From Escherichia coli (GTDB lineage Bacteria; Pseudomonadota; Gammaproteobacteria; Enterobacterales; Enterobacteriaceae), in NCBI RefSeq assembly GCF_009931435.1, contig NZ_CP043414.1: a stretch of 64,000 bases of DNA; one strand, written 5' to 3'. The position numbers and the translations under genes were made by a program. Shown piece after piece: positions 3,690-21,143 of this stretch (positions are counted from its first letter, which is position 1; each line of letters opens with the position of its first letter). Below the pieces are notes generated by a model. That model made no database searches. It saw only the letters and a list, made by a program, of their open reading frames with translations, and was not told the origin of the DNA.

Positions 3690-7402
<3,713 letters not shown>

Positions 7403-8079
7403 ATTCCTTCATTTTTTCAGCAGACTCAACGCATTTATTAGCCCCCTTCGCAACCAGCTCTTTTAGATAAGCCAATTGTCTGCCTGTCAATTCAGGGAAT
7501 TTTCTTTGCATCGAAAGCGGAATACTGTCCAAAACAGATGCCAGTTCTCCGGATAACCGGGACAGGGCAAAAATAGAGAAAGCTGTATCAATCACCTTAT
7601 GCTCTGCAACCTGGTTTTTTAACCGCTGAGCAATAGCCTGTTCTTCCGTCAGGTTAACCCTGGCCTGAAGTAGCCTTTCCTCAAGATCATTTTCACCACC
7701 TGAAGATTTCTGGTTTTGTTGACGTCGCTCGCGATCTATCTCCAGTACAGTTTTAACGTCATAGAAAACCTCTCTCCCCCGGCGCTCAACAGGAGGAACA
7801 CCCCATTTATCAAATGCCTGTACAGAGATACCGATGGAGGAGGCCATGTCGCTTTTATTCAATAAAAAGGCCACAGCCCCTCCATAAACCACCGGCAAAA
7901 AAGCAATACAACAACCACGTTTTTTGTAAAACCCTCTGATTTTACATGCTTTTTCGTATAAGAAAGATCATCAGGTTGTTGTGTTTATTTTTCTTTCTTA
8001 TTACTTATCAAGTAGATATATCAAACGATAAAACAACAACCATCACCTCAAAAAAACTCGTAAATAGCGAAAACCCGCG

Positions 8080-8091
8080 AGGTCGCCGCCC
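8080..8091 (-). other. cos: cosN cohesive-end site (12-nt lambda-type GGGCGGCGACCT on the minus strand)
   Basis: Plus strand reads aggtcgccgccc, preceded by gcgaaaacccgcg, which is the reverse complement of the lambda left-end sequence GGGCGGCGACCTCGCGGGTTTTCGC; lies ~185 bp upstream of Nu1. Coordinates +/-2 nt. Confidence 0.65.
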
Positions 8092-8496
8092 CGTGGCAGG
8101 CCACCCCACCGGAAGGACCCGCACAAATGAGAGTGATTATCACCATTGCTGATGAATAAATTGATGAAAATCATTGAAACGCCTTTCAGCAAGATAACGG
8201 CGACGGTCGTTGTTGCACTCCGTAACTCTGCGACTAAGGTTAAAAGCATGGCCCTCTTTTGCCACCGGCAAATCTTCAATGGATTTCCCCTGCCGGTTTT
8301 TTATTTTCGTCGATGCATAACATTGCATTTACATCAATAGCGGCTATTGTCATTAGTATGTTGCATCAATGCATGGGTGGTATTGGCGGTCTTCGCCGGC
8401 CGGTTCTGTGTAGCTGGACCGGTTTTTTATTTCTCACATTACAGCAGCCCCTTAGAGTGAAGGGCTGCTGTAATGCCGCAATCTTTTTTAACATGA

Positions 8497-8520
8497 AAAA
8501 GGCCGCAGAGCGGCCTTTAT
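8497..8520 (-). terminator. Rho-independent terminator (stem aggccgc/gcggcct, T-run on the minus strand)
   Basis: GC-rich inverted repeat followed on the minus strand by TTTTTCATGTTAAAAAA. A further hairpin cluster lies at 8400-8471. Confidence 0.5.
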
Positions 8521-8537
8521 GGTTTATTGACAATTGA

Positions 8538-8753
8538 TTAAGACGTGTGGCACTTATTGGCACACCAATAGCAACCATTCACCCGGGAATATCCTTTGGC
8601 CTTTGCCTCTGTTACCGCCGAAGAACAATCACTATAGTAACCAAGGTAATCGCGGTTAGCTACAGCAGGAAGATATGAACATTCCTCAGCATGCACCTCA
8701 TGATCGCCATTGCTCTGAGCATTTTTGTTCACGTAATAGTGTTTAAAAACCAT
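8538..8753 (-). CDS. Hypothetical small Cys/Tyr-rich protein (cargo between lysis cassette and cos)
   Basis: 71-aa ORF in an AT-rich stretch; no family recognised by eye. Confidence 0.3.
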   Translation of the reverse strand: MVFKHYYVNKNAQSNGDHEVHAEECSYLPAVANRDYLGYYSDCSSAVTEAKAKGYSRVNGCYWCANKCHTS

Positions 8754-8876
8754 TGTATAACTCCATGTTGACGCTGATATTCAGCATTAACATGCTATAT
8801 CACCAATTACACAAACATAAGCTTGTTATTTCAATTAGTTGATAACGATCACCACTGAACTTTGGCCTTGCGAAAT

Positions 8877-9086
8877 TCAAATGTTTTTCTGACTATTATT
8901 GGGCCGATAAACAGATATTATTTGAGCGTTTTGGTTCATTACATAAGCAATATCTCCATCTTTCAGAATGACTTTCCCATCCTTTCCCGATACGGCAATA
9001 CTCCGCTGCTCAGGATGATAGCCAATGCTACGCCCGCAATGGATCTCTTCCCCACCATTTTGAGACATGACTTTTACAGTTAACAT
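8877..9086 (-). CDS. Hypothetical small protein
   Basis: 69-aa ORF in an AT-rich stretch; unrecognised. Confidence 0.3.
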   Translation of the reverse strand: MLTVKVMSQNGGEEIHCGRSIGYHPEQRSIAVSGKDGKVILKDGDIAYVMNQNAQIISVYRPNNSQKNI

Positions 9087-9173
9087 TTTTCTGCTCCTAT
9101 TTAGATGCCCTTTCCATCCGGGCCACTGTTCAAAGTAAATTTAGATTCAACAATATTCTGCTCTTACAGGCGA

Positions 9174-9356
9174 TCAGTTCTGCATACACTGCCGAACACC
9201 GTCGACAATTTCACAGACCTGAGAAGCTGTATCGAAAAGCTGGCGCGCCTTATCCAGGCTGACGCATCCCACCAGGAAAAAAGGCACCAGTATCGCTACC
9301 AGTGCCCATTTCGCCGCCGTTCGCGGCATTCTGTGTGTCCAGTGTTTTCGCTTCAT
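9174..9356 (-). CDS. Putative small lipoprotein (signal peptide plus LVGC lipobox); possible spanin-like or exclusion lipoprotein
   Basis: MKRKHWTHRMPRTAAKWALVAILVPFFLVGC...: hydrophobic N-terminus followed by Cys; located downstream of the endolysin. Confidence 0.35.
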   Translation of the reverse strand: MKRKHWTHRMPRTAAKWALVAILVPFFLVGCVSLDKARQLFDTASQVCEIVDGVRQCMQN

Positions 9357-9360
9357 CTCA

Positions 9361-9588
9361 CTATCCACCAATCAATCCGGATAAGCTCAATACTCGCCAG
9401 GCGGTGGAAATGAAAATGGCAACCAACATTGCTGAAAATGAAAGGCCAACAACCACACAGAGAATTCGCGCCAGTTTTATAATGCTATCTGACATATTTA
9501 CCCCTGCCCCACTTACGATTTCACAGCAATGAGCAATTTTGCCATCCCATACAGCATCGGAGACACAGCGATACCGACCGCCACCCAC
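9361..9588 (-). CDS. Putative small membrane protein (single TM)
   Basis: ORF with hydrophobic stretch ILCVVVGLSFSAMLVAIFISTAW; start unclear. A further overlapping small hydrophobic ORF is at 9513-9716. Confidence 0.25.
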   Translation of the reverse strand: MGGGRYRCVSDAVWDGKIAHCCEIVSGAGVNMSDSIIKLARILCVVVGLSFSAMLVAIFISTAWRVLSLSGLIGG

Positions 9589-9855
9589 TTAATGGCAAAA
9601 GCCACCGCTCTGCTGATGTCATCAGTTACAGGCGCTTTCAATTCAAGGCCGTTTTTCATAGTCAACCTCAACAGAATTAGTTTATACTTCCTCATGTTCT
9701 CCTTTGCCTTACCCAAGGCCAGAAACAGAAAACCCCGGACTGTTACCGCAGCCGGGGTTTTTGCTATCTGATGCTATGCCCCTTACTTTCGCTCATCGTA
9801 GCCCCAGAAAAGAGCCTGCATGAGTTGAGGGTGTTCAGCACTTCAGTGTCAGTTT

Positions 9856-10401
9856 TTAAACCACCACGCGCTCTTTCATCCAGCCATAGACAAACGACTC
9901 ATTGGCCTCGCGTTTCTCTGCCAGCTCCAGATAACGCTCGCCCTGCGTACAGTTCAGGGCTTTCACCAGTACCAGTTCACCATCCCTGCTGCGATTTTTC
10001 AGATATGCCCGTAATGCATTAAGAGTACGCGGCCCGATGCGTCCATCAGCATCCATATCCGGATAGAGTTTCCCGCGCAGGTTGAAAACGTTCAGCCAGC
10101 GCTGAAGCATTCTGGACGCCACAGTTGGCCCCATGTTCACGCCCGTATCGCACAACTCTGCGGCAATATCCGGAGACAGGTCCTCAACCTGGTCGAATCG
10201 TGGTCCGTACCAGTAGTCCGCCTCGAGTATTTCCAGCGCCTGCCCACGCGTCAGGTCACGCATATCGCCCTGATAACCGTGTGCACGGGCAACTTTTTCA
10301 GTGATGCCCCATTTAGTCGGACCACCTTTATCATCCGGGTGATTGACGTAACCGCCCTCTTTTCCCAGAATTTCGTCAAAAATTTCATCTTTCGACTTCA
10401 T
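9856..10401 (-). CDS. Endolysin, glycoside hydrolase family 108-type with C-terminal peptidoglycan-binding region
   Basis: Motif EGGYVNHPDDKGGPTKWGIT, typical of the GH108 lysozyme N-terminus; position after the holin-like genes. Confidence 0.75.
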   Translation of the reverse strand: MKSKDEIFDEILGKEGGYVNHPDDKGGPTKWGITEKVARAHGYQGDMRDLTRGQALEILEADYWYGPRFDQVEDLSPDIAAELCDTGVNMGPTVASRMLQRWLNVFNLRGKLYPDMDADGRIGPRTLNALRAYLKNRSRDGELVLVKALNCTQGERYLELAEKREANESFVYGWMKERVVV

Positions 10402-10402
10402 A

Positions 10403-10693
10403 TCAGCGCCTTCGTAATACAAGGATTTTTGATACGTTCCCGCGTGCTCGTATCACCAGCACGCAGAACACCAGGTTAATCAGGACGACCAGCCAGTTAC
10501 CGGGTGGAAAGCGACCACACAGATAACAAAGCGGCGCAAAGGCATAAAGCAGCATCAGCAGCCAGGCCAGCCACGACATCAGCGGTTTATGTCTCGACTC
10601 ACCACGACGATAAAAAAAGAGCGTCAGCACGATAACCGTGCTTAACACCACATTCAGTAATCCGGGAAGGTTACTTAACATTACCGCCTCCAC
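10403..10693 (-). CDS. Small polytopic membrane protein (holin/antiholin-like)
   Basis: 96 aa, mostly hydrophobic helices; immediately upstream of the endolysin. Confidence 0.4.
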   Translation of the reverse strand: MEAVMLSNLPGLLNVVLSTVIVLTLFFYRRGESRHKPLMSWLAWLLMLLYAFAPLCYLCGRFPPGNWLVVLINLVFCVLVIRARGNVSKILVLRRR

Positions 10694-11060
10694 CCCGCAG
10701 ACGGGAGAACAGCCCGGATACCAGCGATGCGATATCCTGCTGGTGGATGAATGAGAGAATCTTCACCGACACCACCGATACCAGTACCGCACAAAGCGCG
10801 TCGAGAGATGTGCTGTGGAGATTCAATTTTTCGACCAGCCAGGACGCAAGGACATCCGCCCCCAGCACGCCAACAATGAACGACACCAGAAAATGCGCCG
10901 CCACACGCCAGACAGAAATCACCTGTGGCATCGTGGCCACAAACAACGCCCCGGCAAACGCGCCAAACACAATCCCGAAATCCGTCCCGGTAAACAGCCC
11001 GAATACCGTCGCCCCGCCGAGCGCCACAGCAGTGCTGGAACCGGATAAGGGTTCAGACAT
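10671..11060 (-). CDS. Putative holin (multi-TM, Gly/Ala-rich helices)
   Basis: MSEPLSGSSTAVALGGATVFGLFTGTDFGIVFGAFAGALFVATMP...; first gene of the lysis cassette downstream of Q. Confidence 0.45.
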   Translation of the reverse strand: MSEPLSGSSTAVALGGATVFGLFTGTDFGIVFGAFAGALFVATMPQVISVWRVAAHFLVSFIVGVLGADVLASWLVEKLNLHSTSLDALCAVLVSVVSVKILSFIHQQDIASLVSGLFSRLRGGGGNVK

Positions 11061-11193
11061 ATTTATTCTCCTGTAAATAAAAAGGACCATCAGCGGCCCC
11101 GTAACTGACATTTTATTAACGTTTGAAGATATGGATATTTATCAGGGTTTACCGTTTTCTGAACCCTGGATATGTTAAGCATTCAGCCCGCCA

Positions 11194-11529
11194 GTGGTGG
11201 GACGCTGGCTCATCATAGAGAAAGAGGGATGGCTGATTACCTCTGATCAGGGAAATCACATGCAGTTTTTACATAAAAGAATGCATTTAAATGCAGGAGA
11301 TACGGTAGTGGTTGACTGCTCTCATCAGTGCAATATTTTGCTGATGACAGATACAAACTTTAATAACTACCGCAACGCAAGAAGCTTTCATCATCACGGT
11401 GGTGGCGGTTTTTTTCAGAGATTACCGGCCCACCTTCATGTACCGCATTCAGGTTACTGGAATATTACAATTGATTTAGGAGGCGGAAGTGCAGCTATTC
11501 GGCACTCCATTTCCGTCATCCCAGCATAG
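11194..11529 (+). CDS. Hypothetical protein on the opposite strand to phage late transcription (moron-like unit with its own terminator)
   Basis: ORF (probable start at the internal ATG giving MQFLHKRMHLNAGD...) followed by hairpins at 11557-11596 and a terminator at 11778-11815. Confidence 0.3.
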   Translation: MVGRWLIIEKEGWLITSDQGNHMQFLHKRMHLNAGDTVVVDCSHQCNILLMTDTNFNNYRNARSFHHHGGGGFFQRLPAHLHVPHSGYWNITIDLGGGSAAIRHSISVIPA

Positions 11530-11777
11530 CAACTCGCCTTTAGCCTGAGTAAATGCGTCCTCAAGGACGGCAACGAGTCGCAGTTGCGTGCCGTCCTTTA
11601 CACAGCGTGTGCAGGCAATACCTTCAGAACTTTCATTATGCCGAGCTCATACAATTTCACCATTTTGTTCAACTACAACGCTCATAATTTTCTTACACTT
11701 TTTTAATAAACCACACCAATAACAACCATCACCGATACCTTTTGTATGCTGTTATTTTGCATTACGGTGTAACGGCA

Positions 11778-11815
11778 AGAGCCCCCTCCCCGCCCTGAAA
11801 GGCTCTGTGTTTTTG
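11778..11815 (+). terminator. Rho-independent terminator (stem agagcc/ggctct followed by GTGTTTTT)
   Basis: Inverted repeat plus T-run, read directly. Confidence 0.45.
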
Positions 11816-11840
11816 ATGTGCGCCTGATGTGGCTCAGATA

Positions 11841-11864
11841 CAAAAAAGCTCGCAGTAGCGAGCT
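11841..11864 (-). terminator. Rho-independent terminator after the 92-aa minus-strand ORF (stem agctcgc/gcgagct plus T6)
   Basis: Inverted repeat followed by TTTTTT on the minus strand. Confidence 0.5.
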
Positions 11865-11887
11865 AACAGAAAATATGAAGCATGTTT

Positions 11888-12166
11888 TTATCCACGAAGT
11901 ATGACGTTGAATTCATCCATACCGACACGGCTGGCTATCTCGTTGTATTCCTCAACAAGAGCCAGCAATTCTGAATTAGCAGCCATGAACTCTTCAAAAA
12001 CCTTATGGATGGCATCACTGTTTAATAAAACAATGTTCTTTCCTGAAAGGCGATCAGGGGTAGAAAATATAACTGTCAAACGACTAAAGGCCCTGGCTCG
12101 TTCAGCATTAACATCCTCAATACGCTGCAACAAGCTGGAGCACCTGGAAATATCATCAATATTCAC
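11888..12166 (-). CDS. Hypothetical protein
   Basis: 92-aa ORF; unrecognised. Confidence 0.3.
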   Translation of the reverse strand: MNIDDISRCSSLLQRIEDVNAERARAFSRLTVIFSTPDRLSGKNIVLLNSDAIHKVFEEFMAANSELLALVEEYNEIASRVGMDEFNVILRG

Positions 12167-19640: not shown

Positions 19641-21143
19641 TTAAACCGTTTCATCAAGGAAATACTTAGACGAATCATCCTGTTTCGGTTGATATGTTTT
19701 TTTTGCAGAATTAAGAACTCTTCTTAGTTCTTTTCTTAACTCAGGTAAACGCTCCTGAAGAGGGTTAGAACACCATTGTGAAGGCAACCCTCTTATAATA
19801 GCTTCGGAACAAAGCGGTGAAATAAGTTTTTCCATTTGATAATAGAAAGTTTTTGCTCGACTTACACGCATTGTGATCCTTTTTATTACATCTCTTTCAG
19901 ACTCAATTCTAGCACTCAGATCTCTTAATCTACTCCATACCTTAGCATCAGCAATATATGTATCATAAAGCATACACTCTATAAACGTGAAATTACTAAT
20001 AAGTTCTTTTGCAATATACCCCCCCAGCCGAGAAGGAATGAAACTTGATGAAGCTGTTGGATCTCCGTGATTTACGGTGAACAAAAACCTTTTATTGCAT
20101 AAATCAACGAGAACTCGATGCGTGAAAGAGTCACCTATACCAATTAACCTTAACTTTTCAGTTATTACCGAACCATCGATTTGTCTGAATCCGGGATCGC
20201 TTGCATACGAAACGATAACATTAAGAATGTACAGCCTCAATAATTGCATTTGTGTCACAGCTAAATTCGAATCAAACGGGTTCGCAATAGTCGACGTTGA
20301 CTCGCTATAAGTCAACTCAGTACCCAGTAATATAGCTCTAAATGCCTCATGACGTGGAAGAAGATATCTTCCTTGTTCTCTGAAAATTTGTACTGCTTTA
20401 CCTGGACTCGTATACCCTCTTTCTAAGAACTCACGAGTCATACGTAATGCTAATCGAACATCATCCGTAGCAAGAACTTCAATACGTGTTCCAATCTCAC
20501 TTCCCAGCACAGACCCACTAATAATATCGACTAATTGTGATATATCATCCAATACAACTTTAGCGCCATTTTCTGCAATAAAATTTCCACTTTTATTACT
20601 TGTCATATACTTTACTAGTGCAAAGCGTTTTGCAATCACACTACTTATTCTCGGTGGATCTATTTGTATAACTTCAAAATCGAAAGCATCTATAGCAGGT
20701 GAGTTTTTATGTTTGATAAATGTAGACTGCCTCAATGAAAGTACTAAATTTAATGAAAGCGCTCTGGAAATTGAAAATGACTCGGTAAATATCCGGGACT
20801 GGATATCATCAAACTCGATCTGATCAACGTTATCAATAACAAGAAAAAAAGATGTCTCTTTTGTAACACGACTTATTATTTTATCAACATAAGGTTTTAT
20901 CTTTTTATATTGTTCATATAAAAAATCCGAGATTCTGGTATTTTTTTGATCCTCACTCAATAAAAAAAGAGGTCCTGATTTTATCGCCTCAATATCTTCT
21001 CGAAATGCATCAAATACAAAATCCTTATTACTCAAAACAGGATGCTTATTGATATATTCCAGAATTGATTTATAAATAAAATCGACTATTGAACTTTCTG
21101 ATGGATTATCTAGAAAGTCTATATGAACCCAATGCGGCGTCAA
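19641..21143 (-). CDS. 3' ORF of split nuclease-NTPase gene: Walker B-like FFLVIDNVD plus ~400-aa C-terminal region; track start is TTG and the frame is open further upstream
   Basis: Same strand as, and overlapping frame with, the upstream ORF across an A8 tract; hhhhDxxD motif ~100 aa into the ORF; AT-rich. Confidence 0.6.
   Translation of the reverse strand: MTPHWVHIDFLDNPSESSIVDFIYKSILEYINKHPVLSNKDFVFDAFREDIEAIKSGPLFLLSEDQKNTRISDFLYEQYKKIKPYVDKIISRVTKETSFFLVIDNVDQIEFDDIQSRIFTESFSISRALSLNLVLSLRQSTFIKHKNSPAIDAFDFEVIQIDPPRISSVIAKRFALVKYMTSNKSGNFIAENGAKVVLDDISQLVDIISGSVLGSEIGTRIEVLATDDVRLALRMTREFLERGYTSPGKAVQIFREQGRYLLPRHEAFRAILLGTELTYSESTSTIANPFDSNLAVTQMQLLRLYILNVIVSYASDPGFRQIDGSVITEKLRLIGIGDSFTHRVLVDLCNKRFLFTVNHGDPTASSSFIPSRLGGYIAKELISNFTFIECMLYDTYIADAKVWSRLRDLSARIESERDVIKRITMRVSRAKTFYYQMEKLISPLCSEAIIRGLPSQWCSNPLQERLPELRKELRRVLNSAKKTYQPKQDDSSKYFLDETV

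Follow-up and report, generated by a model that had tools for sequence, protein, structure and literature searches.

A lipoprotein gene in the spanin position of a lambdoid Escherichia coli prophage as a candidate stand-alone outer-membrane lysis gene

We describe a gene in the lysis cassette of a lambdoid Escherichia coli prophage that encodes a small lipoprotein and occupies the position in which related phages carry their spanin genes. The window, i.e. the whole stretch of 64,000 nucleotides that was analysed (RefSeq assembly GCF_009931435.1, contig NZ_CP043414.1), carries part of this prophage, which is 100% identical to a prophage in strain N18-04097 and has its late genes on the minus strand. 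In the order of transcription the cassette consists of a PF16931 holin (H8), a PF05449 holin (H3), a GH108 endolysin, a hairpin and three small open reading frames (ORFs) A, B and C, the last of which (9174..9356, minus strand; phrog_7528, E 5e-38) encodes a 60-aa prolipoprotein. Our data suggest, with a probability of about 0.6, that C constitutes a stand-alone outer-membrane step of the lysis cassette, and in terms of the existing literature C is best read as an o-spanin-like protein without a complex.

The comparison supporting this covers approximately 250 related loci (L-numbers denote individual loci), including three sets of 80: set 1 comprises IMG/VR loci fetched by similarity to C, i.e. 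selected for having C, set 2 comprises loci fetched by similarity to a Yersinia-type PF16931 holin, and set 3 comprises loci for which only the H3 holin served as criterion. C closes the lysis cassette in all 72 loci of set 1 with enough upstream DNA, the order being H8, H3, endolysin and C, and a spanin is present in 0 of the 72. All 73 complete cassettes of set 2, which have Yersinia-like H8/H3 holins, carry an overlapped i-/o-spanin pair composed of a 92-aa protein with an N-terminal transmembrane domain (TMD; phrog_1026) and a 69-aa lipoprotein (phrog_1275), both labelled 'Rz-like spanin', and C is found in none of them. Set 3 contains 66 cassettes ending in C, four with the order H8, H3, M15 endolysin and lambda-type Rz/Rz1, six with neither C nor spanin, four that are truncated and none with both. 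In the Yersinia phage vB_YpM_39 (L086) the ATG of the i-spanin overlaps the stop codon of the GH108 gene (ATGA), in Y. enterocolitica prophages (L167) the ATG of C overlaps the GH108 stop in the same manner, and the nucleotide homology between the two stops exactly at this junction. C co-occurs with an intact spanin pair in no examined locus. The only deposited phage having a C-like sequence plus Rz/Rz1 is GER2 (MG710528), a relative of Shiga toxin (Stx) phages that carries S, R, an A-like gene and Rz/Rz1; considered as a counter-example, its unannotated C copy, located approximately 0.7 kb downstream of Rz (L339 3477-3680), proved to be a decayed pseudogene with four in-frame stops. Phages with C are viable: C is carried by phiP27, phiSTEC1575-Stx2k and pPE4, all of them isolated phages, in whose examined lysis regions no spanin is annotated.

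C keeps this terminal position behind three cassette backgrounds and two unrelated endolysin types, following either the GH108 enzyme or a 125-aa M15 peptidase, with or without A and B. Between endolysin and C there is nothing, an A-like gene, A-B or inserted morons; directly linked genes with a gap of approximately 14 nt are found e.g. in L016 and in E. coli KO11FL, whose cassette reads H8, H3, M15 endolysin, C. The downstream flanks, i.e. genes for a 69-aa and a 71-aa protein and the small terminase gene terS, are common to C-type and spanin-type cassettes. The first-pass annotation, made from the DNA sequence without database searches, had left undecided whether the small ORFs downstream of the endolysin are a noncanonical spanin equivalent or unrelated cargo; position, exclusivity with spanins, coupling to the endolysin and decay in GER2 favour the former for C, while the suggestion does not hold for A and B.

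Cargo unrelated to lysis is the likeliest of the alternatives: like Bor, Cor or Llp, C might be a moron lipoprotein with a part in superinfection exclusion, in resistance to serum or in remodelling of the envelope, in phages that lack spanins altogether. The region behind the endolysin is a known cargo hot spot, genes of the heat-labile enterotoxin LT-II occupy this slot in SerU-LTIIb, L325 and L330, other morons (a 93-aa gene, KilA-N, anti90) are found nearby, small lipoproteins are typical exclusion factors, and two cassettes have neither C nor spanin. We consider this explanation unlikely, as a moron is expected to co-occur freely with spanin pairs, whereas C strictly excludes them and is decayed in GER2, and as C has persisted while holin type, endolysin type and morphogenesis module were exchanged; moreover, C yields no match in PADLOC and no Pfam Bor match. 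C is co-oriented with the endolysin and starts at a distance of -4 to approximately 14 nt from the preceding stop codon in every context, whereas bor in L017 lies behind C on the opposite strand, in the same position in which it follows Rz/Rz1 in lambda. We found no promoter-like site on the coding strand within 8300-11400. Because C is close to or overlaps the endolysin gene on the same strand and has no promoter-like site, expression in the lysogen is unlikely and would not fit this arrangement; C would rather be co-expressed late and Q-dependently with the endolysin. Of the features of a Bor-like moron, neither a promoter-like site of its own nor co-occurrence with intact spanins was found for C.

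The prophage does not appear to encode a partner for C. The annotation of the identical prophage by the NCBI Prokaryotic Genome Annotation Pipeline (PGAP) contains no spanin from int to the tail-fibre gene. As already noticed in the first pass, no i-spanin-like ORF of approximately 150 aa follows the GH108 endolysin, and we found none in any frame. A six-frame lipobox scan with all start codons, which recovered Rz1 and the Yersinia o-spanin as controls, identified no credible lipobox ORF but C on the coding strand of the prophage. A scan for ORFs combining a TMD at the N-terminus with a charged tail of 45 aa or more, which recovered Rz and the Yersinia i-spanin, revealed no recurrent i-spanin-like ORF in 90 C-bearing loci, and no cognate i-spanin gene was found in the window, the identical prophage or these 90 loci. 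A conserved spanin gene in another frame, which would have marked the small ORFs as spurious, was thus searched for with working positive controls and not found.

These results have to be reconciled with the published assignment of phage phiP27, for which a survey lists a 'separated' two-component spanin (Kongari et al. 2018, PMC6139136) with an i-spanin at 20348-20542 (64 aa) and an o-spanin at 20706-20861 (51 aa), both singleton families and, with 32 + 30 residues (62 aa), the shortest periplasmic total in the whole survey. The listed o-spanin is the homologue of C (95% identical), called from an internal Met. The listed i-spanin (L001 3733-3927) is an ORF with a TTG start and no PHROG match of its own, which overlaps in antisense a conserved gene for a 90-aa protein (L001 3717-3989, minus strand; phrog_36812, E 5e-20) and is intact in phiP27 copies only; in L042 the antisense gene is kept (46% identity) while the frame of the 'i-spanin' is collapsed to 36 aa. 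The TTG start, the antisense position, the non-conservation and the collapse in L042 together indicate that the i-spanin of phiP27 is probably spurious and its lipoprotein an orphan, so that the i-spanin is probably a mis-call and the published two-component assignment probably needs correction. The same survey reports 31 genomes with a lipoprotein but no linked i-spanin (PMC6139136).

Accordingly, it is quite improbable that C belongs as o-spanin to a conventional two-component spanin whose i-spanin is very short or has escaped recognition, be it B, A or the 64-aa ORF of phiP27. The catalogue entry for phiP27 speaks for such a pair, as do the outer-membrane lipoprotein signal and the periplasmic Cys residues which C shares with many o-spanins, its position downstream of the endolysin within the lysis cassette, and the fact that B is a type-II-like TMD protein encoded directly upstream of C. 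Against it stand, in addition to the features of the phiP27 ORF and the negative result for the 90 loci, at least 25 cassettes in which C follows the endolysin directly with nothing in between, and the co-occurrence of A and B with complete Rz/Rz1. The 30 residues of mature C and the tail of B of approximately 15 aa add up to approximately 45 aa, too short for spanning the periplasm. ORF A was considered as a type I (N-out) i-spanin and rejected, as its N-terminus has a net charge of +4 and is predicted to be cytoplasmic, and as it co-occurs with Rz/Rz1 and is missing from many C cassettes. The H8 or H3 holin was likewise rejected as a hidden partner of C: both are also present in spanin-bearing cassettes, and relatives of C follow a different, single holin.

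The protein itself has the sequence signature of an outer-membrane lipoprotein, its lipoprotein signal being of textbook quality. The signal peptide comprises codons 1-30 (9267-9356) and ends in the lipobox L-V-G-C, embedded in the context ALVAILVPFFLVG-C31-VS, with FFLVG directly before the lipidated Cys31 (9264-9266). The mature part of 30 aa, CVSLDKARQLFDTASQVCEIVDGVRQCMQN (9177-9266), contains two Cys residues in addition to Cys31, C48 and C57, and no Pro, which bears out the first-pass description of a lipoprotein of approximately 60 aa with an LVGC lipobox, three Cys in the mature part and no Pro-rich composition. The h-region and lipobox, Ala44, Cys48 and Cys57 are the invariants of the family; the lipobox is unchanged across 27-29 homologues, and lipobox and both Cys remain invariant family-wide, diverged members included. 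The residue at position +2 is Val, Ala, Ser, Thr or Gly (Glu in the homologue P0184) and never Asp, i.e. the lipobox is of the outer-membrane-sorting kind found in o-spanins, and C is predicted to be sorted to the outer membrane by Lol.

The n-region, M-x-R-K-H-W-T-H-R-x-P-R, is as constrained as the mature part. Codons 1-17 (9306-9356; MxRKHWTHRxPRxxAK), which form an unusually long n-region with a net charge of approximately +6, show a ratio of nonsynonymous to synonymous polymorphism (pN/pS) of 0.27-0.30, and the n-region persists in the diverged relatives P0165, L256 and L257. This constraint is unusual for a signal peptide and suggests a sequence-specific role of the precursor or of the cleaved signal peptide. 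A twin-arginine translocation (Tat) signal was considered and rejected, as the aligned n-regions contain no conserved twin-arginine, with PRT in subfamily 1 and PRR in subfamily 2.

Mature C has a mean hydrophobicity of -0.08 without any hydrophobic stretch and ends in RQCMQN. It shows a 3-4 hydrophobic repeat (S3, A7, L10, A14, V17, V21, V24, M28) with a moderate maximal hydrophobic moment of 0.53 over 18 residues. AlphaFold models the monomer as a helix with a weak C-terminal hairpin (predicted local distance difference test, pLDDT, 67) and an artificial tandem dimer, connected by a Gly-Ser linker, as two plain helices (pLDDT 49); these models are too uncertain to choose between intra- and intermolecular disulfides. 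For the phiP27 homologue, Jpred called 25 of the 30 mature residues helical (PMC6139136, supplement). The spacing between Cys48 and Cys57 is 9 in the main family and 10 in a diverged subfamily, which would fit a closed loop or a flexible pairing better than a fixed helical face. In one E. coli allele of C (P0020), a 10-residue tandem duplication (QLFDTASQVC) in the mature domain results in a third periplasmic Cys.

A, B and C are all real genes under purifying selection, with pN/pS values of 0.26 for A (33 unique alleles), 0.12 for B (14) and 0.23 for C (58), compared to 0.21 for the holin. Codons 2-9 of C are constrained (pN/pS 0.27) and its ATG is kept behind four different upstream contexts; together with the PHROG matches and the pN/pS values this settles the frame assignment, which the first-pass annotation had considered uncertain. 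The small membrane ORFs reported there are present, but the overlap ascribed to them vanishes with the ATG starts assigned by PGAP in the identical prophage, which leave intergenic gaps of 17 nt between A and B and 4 nt between B and C; the apparent overlap arose because the ORFs had been extended to the first TTG or GTG. Searches of A, B and C against Pfam, NCBIfam and PADLOC returned nothing at E <= 0.1-1. Their sole matches are PHROG families of unknown function, and the source names are 'hypothetical' for all three clusters as well as for 120 homologues of ORF A.

The C family is narrow. A word-index search returned 145 clusters with identities of 71% or more, exclusively from Enterobacteriaceae, and an exhaustive profile search of 1.84 billion representatives with the C family returned 23 proteins, all small lipoproteins of the same type, without a link to any known family. 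Of 5426 complete E. coli genomes, 313 contain C, in at most 7 copies each. The cassette is found in lambda-like phages (as in the window), P27-like, Terminase_6/Mu-F-like (Cronobacter) and Terminase_2 (Salmonella) phage types, and also in a sheath-bearing myovirus-type module (Yersinia, L168). A diverged subfamily, approximately 48% identical and with lipobox and both Cys kept, is found downstream of Q in cassettes of three genes, in which a single holin of the PF05106 type comes first and the lipoprotein gene directly follows an M15 endolysin (L251, L252, L256-L258), showing that the PF16931 and PF05449 proteins are not obligatory partners of C.

This breadth of context also bears on the possibility that C regulates lysis, e.g. 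as a timing factor, an antiholin-like sensor or a modulator of the endolysin, instead of disrupting the outer membrane. C belongs to the lysis cassette, the basic n-region of its signal peptide is unusually conserved, and small accessory lysis proteins exist, such as Lcc6 of phage LambdaSo acting at the holin level (bioRxiv 10.1101/2024.01.23.576932). Such a role is very doubtful: pairing of C with two unrelated endolysin folds and two unrelated holin sets makes specific regulation unlikely, neither the exclusion of spanins nor the exact spanin junction is expected of a regulator, and outer-membrane sorting would place C away from the holins.

Several points weigh against C being a stand-alone outer-membrane lysis protein. 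The argument is based on comparative genomics throughout. The loci are highly redundant, being mostly E. coli prophages with C copies 92-100% identical, and are not phylogenetically independent; as the samples were in addition selected by similarity, the counts overstate the number of independent events and the clean table of 72, 73, 0 and 0 overstates its statistical weight. Of the six cassettes of set 3 with neither C nor spanin, two have LT-II toxin genes in the slot, one is cut by an IS21-like element, one is a decayed remnant, and the remaining two, L274 and L311, are apparently uninterrupted H8-H3-GH108 cassettes. The latter two are the main exception to the either/or pattern and could be defective prophages or truly spanin-less; together with the approximately 13% of phages having no recognisable spanin (PMC6139136), they indicate that a spanin-less cassette is possible and C possibly dispensable. 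The mature part of C has a net charge of -1 and is thus anionic, unlike the cationic disruptin, and an amphipathic helix is not supported, as the amphipathicity of the whole core is not significant (691 of 5000 shuffles). The two AlphaFold models, both of low confidence, conflict over the C-terminal third. C furthermore has no homology to any lysis family in Pfam or NCBIfam, and common ancestry with LysC-like o-spanins is not supported because hhalign aligned the signal peptides only, with a probability of 2%.

Weighing both sides, we favour a model according to which C would be made late, co-transcribed with the holins and the endolysin and often translationally coupled to the latter, and would take the functional place of the Rz/Rz1 complex without a phage-encoded inner-membrane partner. 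The mature protein would be a largely helical lipopeptide of 30 residues with two invariant periplasmic cysteines. At this length it cannot bridge the periplasm, so that membrane fusion is probably not involved; more likely, C would weaken the outer membrane from the inner leaflet. Stabilised by a disulfide or oligomerised, the lipopeptide might perturb the bilayer directly; alternatively, it might depend on a host factor, as do colicin lysis lipoproteins, which act via phospholipase A. The outer membrane would give way after the endolysin has removed the wall. C could be a phage-borne counterpart of the colicin release lipoproteins, acting via the outer-membrane phospholipase OmpLA or by perturbing the inner leaflet. 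It is less likely that unprocessed C precursor in the inner membrane pairs with the mature outer-membrane form through the conserved Cys. A and B would be small inner-membrane proteins inserted between the endolysin and the outer-membrane gene that follows.

Comparison with known systems helps to delimit this model. Like the o-spanins, e.g. lambda Rz1 or the phiP27 entry, C is a small, predicted outer-membrane lipoprotein with periplasmic Cys encoded at the 3' end of the cassette after the endolysin. In contrast to them it has no conserved i-spanin, no profile relation to the LysC-type family tested and no Pfam spanin match, and its mature length of 30 aa is the shortest in the catalogue of PMC6139136; Rz1 is Pro-rich and unstructured, whereas C contains no Pro and is predicted to be helical. 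With the unimolecular spanin gp11 of T1, C shares the single gene, the N-terminal lipoprotein signal and the spanin slot, but proteins of the gp11 type carry an inner-membrane TMD at the C-terminus and span the envelope with a long periplasmic domain rich in beta structure, while C has no TMD. The disruptin gp28 of coliphage phiKT, which is spanin-less, is likewise a small, partnerless protein encoded by a single gene, and it complements lambda spanin nulls, which shows that breaking the outer membrane does not require a bridge across the envelope (bioRxiv 10.1101/515445). This peptide of 56 aa is cationic and amphipathic and was described with no mention of lipidation, whereas C is predicted to be a Sec/Lol-routed lipoprotein of net charge -1 and does not qualify as a disruptin.

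A functional resemblance exists to the colicin lysis proteins or bacteriocin release proteins (BRPs). Their precursor has approximately 47 aa and their mature lipoprotein approximately 28 aa; after Lol has sorted them to the outer membrane, they need no partner gene to permeabilise the envelope via phospholipase A, and they are lethal when overexpressed (PMC2896534). BRPs and C have in common a mature outer-membrane lipopeptide of approximately 28-35 aa, the absence of a partner gene and a similar lipobox context. This resemblance is functional only: C gave no match to Pfam PF02402 (Lysis_col) at E <= 1 and none in NCBIfam and thus does not belong to this family, and BRPs are encoded in SOS-controlled colicin operons while C belongs to a phage late operon. 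The mature BRP of ColE1 is not known to contain the conserved Cys pair of C. Like C, lambda Bor is a small lipoprotein whose gene adjoins the lysis genes in lambdoid phages; bor is expressed independently in lysogens and is found together with Rz/Rz1. Bor has 97 aa and is encoded on the opposite strand (L017 has both C and bor), whereas C is co-oriented with and coupled to the endolysin and excluded by spanins. Lcc6 of the Shewanella phage LambdaSo resembles A and B by description, being a lysis-associated protein of approximately 45-65 aa with a single TMD and no known domain; its gene is remote from the lysis genes, and its TMD is N-terminal and followed by a cytoplasmic tail, in contrast to the C-terminal TMD of A.

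ORF A (9513..9695, minus strand; phrog_1115, E 1.7e-44) encodes a 60-aa membrane protein with a basic N-terminal stretch of 29 aa followed by one TMD near the C-terminus, and ORF B (9361..9495, minus strand; phrog_4906, E 3e-19) a 44-aa protein with a single TMD (Kyte-Doolittle hydropathy over 19 residues, KD19, of 2.81 at residues 11-29) and a short C-terminal tail. In all 78 loci retrieved by their similarity to A, the module is located between the endolysin and the terminal outer-membrane gene or genes: 38 loci have the order S, R (lysozyme), A, B, Rz/Rz1 and 40 the order H8, H3, endolysin, A(-B), C. Since A-B is found equally upstream of Rz/Rz1 and of C, it is not the spanin substitute. 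A and B are missing from many C-bearing cassettes, with B absent from those of the A-like-C and endolysin-C types. In many cassettes C is preceded by a diverged A-like gene (45% identity) that has no B beside it, as is Rz in GER2 and L299. A-B is hence an optional, independently mobile module. With low confidence, and by analogy with Lcc6 of LambdaSo, A and B may modulate lysis at the membrane level; an alternative reading is a toxin-like selfish module. A-like proteins end in RWW (L299 5084-5221; L085 5079-5252; L339 2130-2282), and their stop codons lie within 1-2 nt of the next start, be it that of Rz or C, which suggests that the A-like gene is translationally coupled to the outer-membrane gene.

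The hairpin upstream of A (9719..9771), flanked by an A-run and a T-run, has a predicted folding energy of -28.3 kcal/mol (z -3.3, 0 of 200 shuffles as good) and resembles a bidirectional intrinsic terminator. In every context it precedes A or the A-like gene, e.g. at L002 2975-3012 and upstream of the A-like gene in L085 and L017, and it delimits the A(-B) module on its 5' side within the late operon. It occurs as 18 sequence variants in 139 places, and its inner stem varies compensatorily (CTG/CAG versus TTG/CAA) between C-type and Rz-type contexts. On the plus strand of the window, at approximately 9659-9776, a promoter-like site (-35 TAGTCA, N18, -10 TATACT) lies inside codons 3-12 of A; the RNA predicted from it would start near the A start codon, end at the hairpin and cover the Shine-Dalgarno sequence and ATG of A. 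The -10 element falls within the codons AAGTATAAA for KYK, where all 53 of 53 unique segments are free of synonymous changes, and variants of the -35 element keep the 18-nt spacing. An Rfam scan of 8000-12000 gave a best hit of only E 0.17, and a match to the P22 sar RNA stayed below threshold (23 bits versus a cut-off of 43 bits, E 0.22). A cis-antisense small RNA of approximately 80 nt opposite the 5' end of A may exist, for which these sequence features are a weak indication.

Upstream of this module lie two holin-like genes and the endolysin gene. The first holin-like gene (10671..11060, minus strand, start according to PGAP) encodes a 129-aa protein with multiple TMDs (PF16931 Phage_holin_8, E 1.5e-22; phrog_198 'holin') and the second (10403..10681, minus strand, PGAP coordinates) a 92-aa protein with 3 TMDs (PF05449 Phage_holin_3_7, E 9e-21; phrog_217 'holin'). 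The endolysin (9856..10401, minus strand) combines a GH108 domain (PF05838, E 1.3e-26) with PG_binding_3 (PF09374, E 1e-26), and its copy in the identical prophage is annotated as glycoside hydrolase family 108 protein. Beyond C, two more small conserved genes are followed by a terminator and the small and large terminase genes. The first of the two (8877..9086, minus strand) encodes the 69-aa protein with a match to phrog_3909, the second (8538..8753, minus strand) the 71-aa Cys/His-rich protein with a match to phrog_4298, and the terminator-like hairpin lies at 8498-8518. Both late genes sit between the lysis and packaging genes and recur behind C-type and spanin-type cassettes. The phrog_3909 gene is found behind an i-/o-spanin pair in L095, L123, L127, L158 and L154; it is not part of the lysis function and marks a downstream flank common to spanin-type cassettes. 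In other loci of the comparison toxin genes adjoin the cassette: LT-II A and B genes lie directly after the GH108 endolysin in the A-B-C slot (L084 4522-5671; L325/L330 approximately 5023-6167), these LT-II-bearing cassettes having neither C nor spanin, and in Cronobacter (L169) a pertussis-toxin S1-like gene (PF02917) lies just upstream of the first holin.

How the approximately 13% of phages without recognisable spanins break the outer membrane is an acknowledged open question (PMC6139136), for which the phiKT disruptin is the sole experimental alternative. The C family is a second candidate alternative, present in lambdoid E. coli prophages, in the laboratory lineage E. coli W/KO11FL and in the inducible Stx phages phiP27 and phiSTEC1575-Stx2k. 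Tentatively, it might even represent a third kind of phage outer-membrane lysis protein beside spanins and disruptin, consisting of one partnerless lipopeptide that does not span the periplasm. If this holds true, the published 'two-component spanin' of the Stx2e phage phiP27 would be a one-gene system and the catalogued assignment would be corrected, a widespread 'hypothetical protein' would receive a name, and a lipopeptide of 30 residues would be capable of destabilising the outer membrane of Gram-negative bacteria from within. It would also become clearer how Stx- and LT-II-associated prophages are released.

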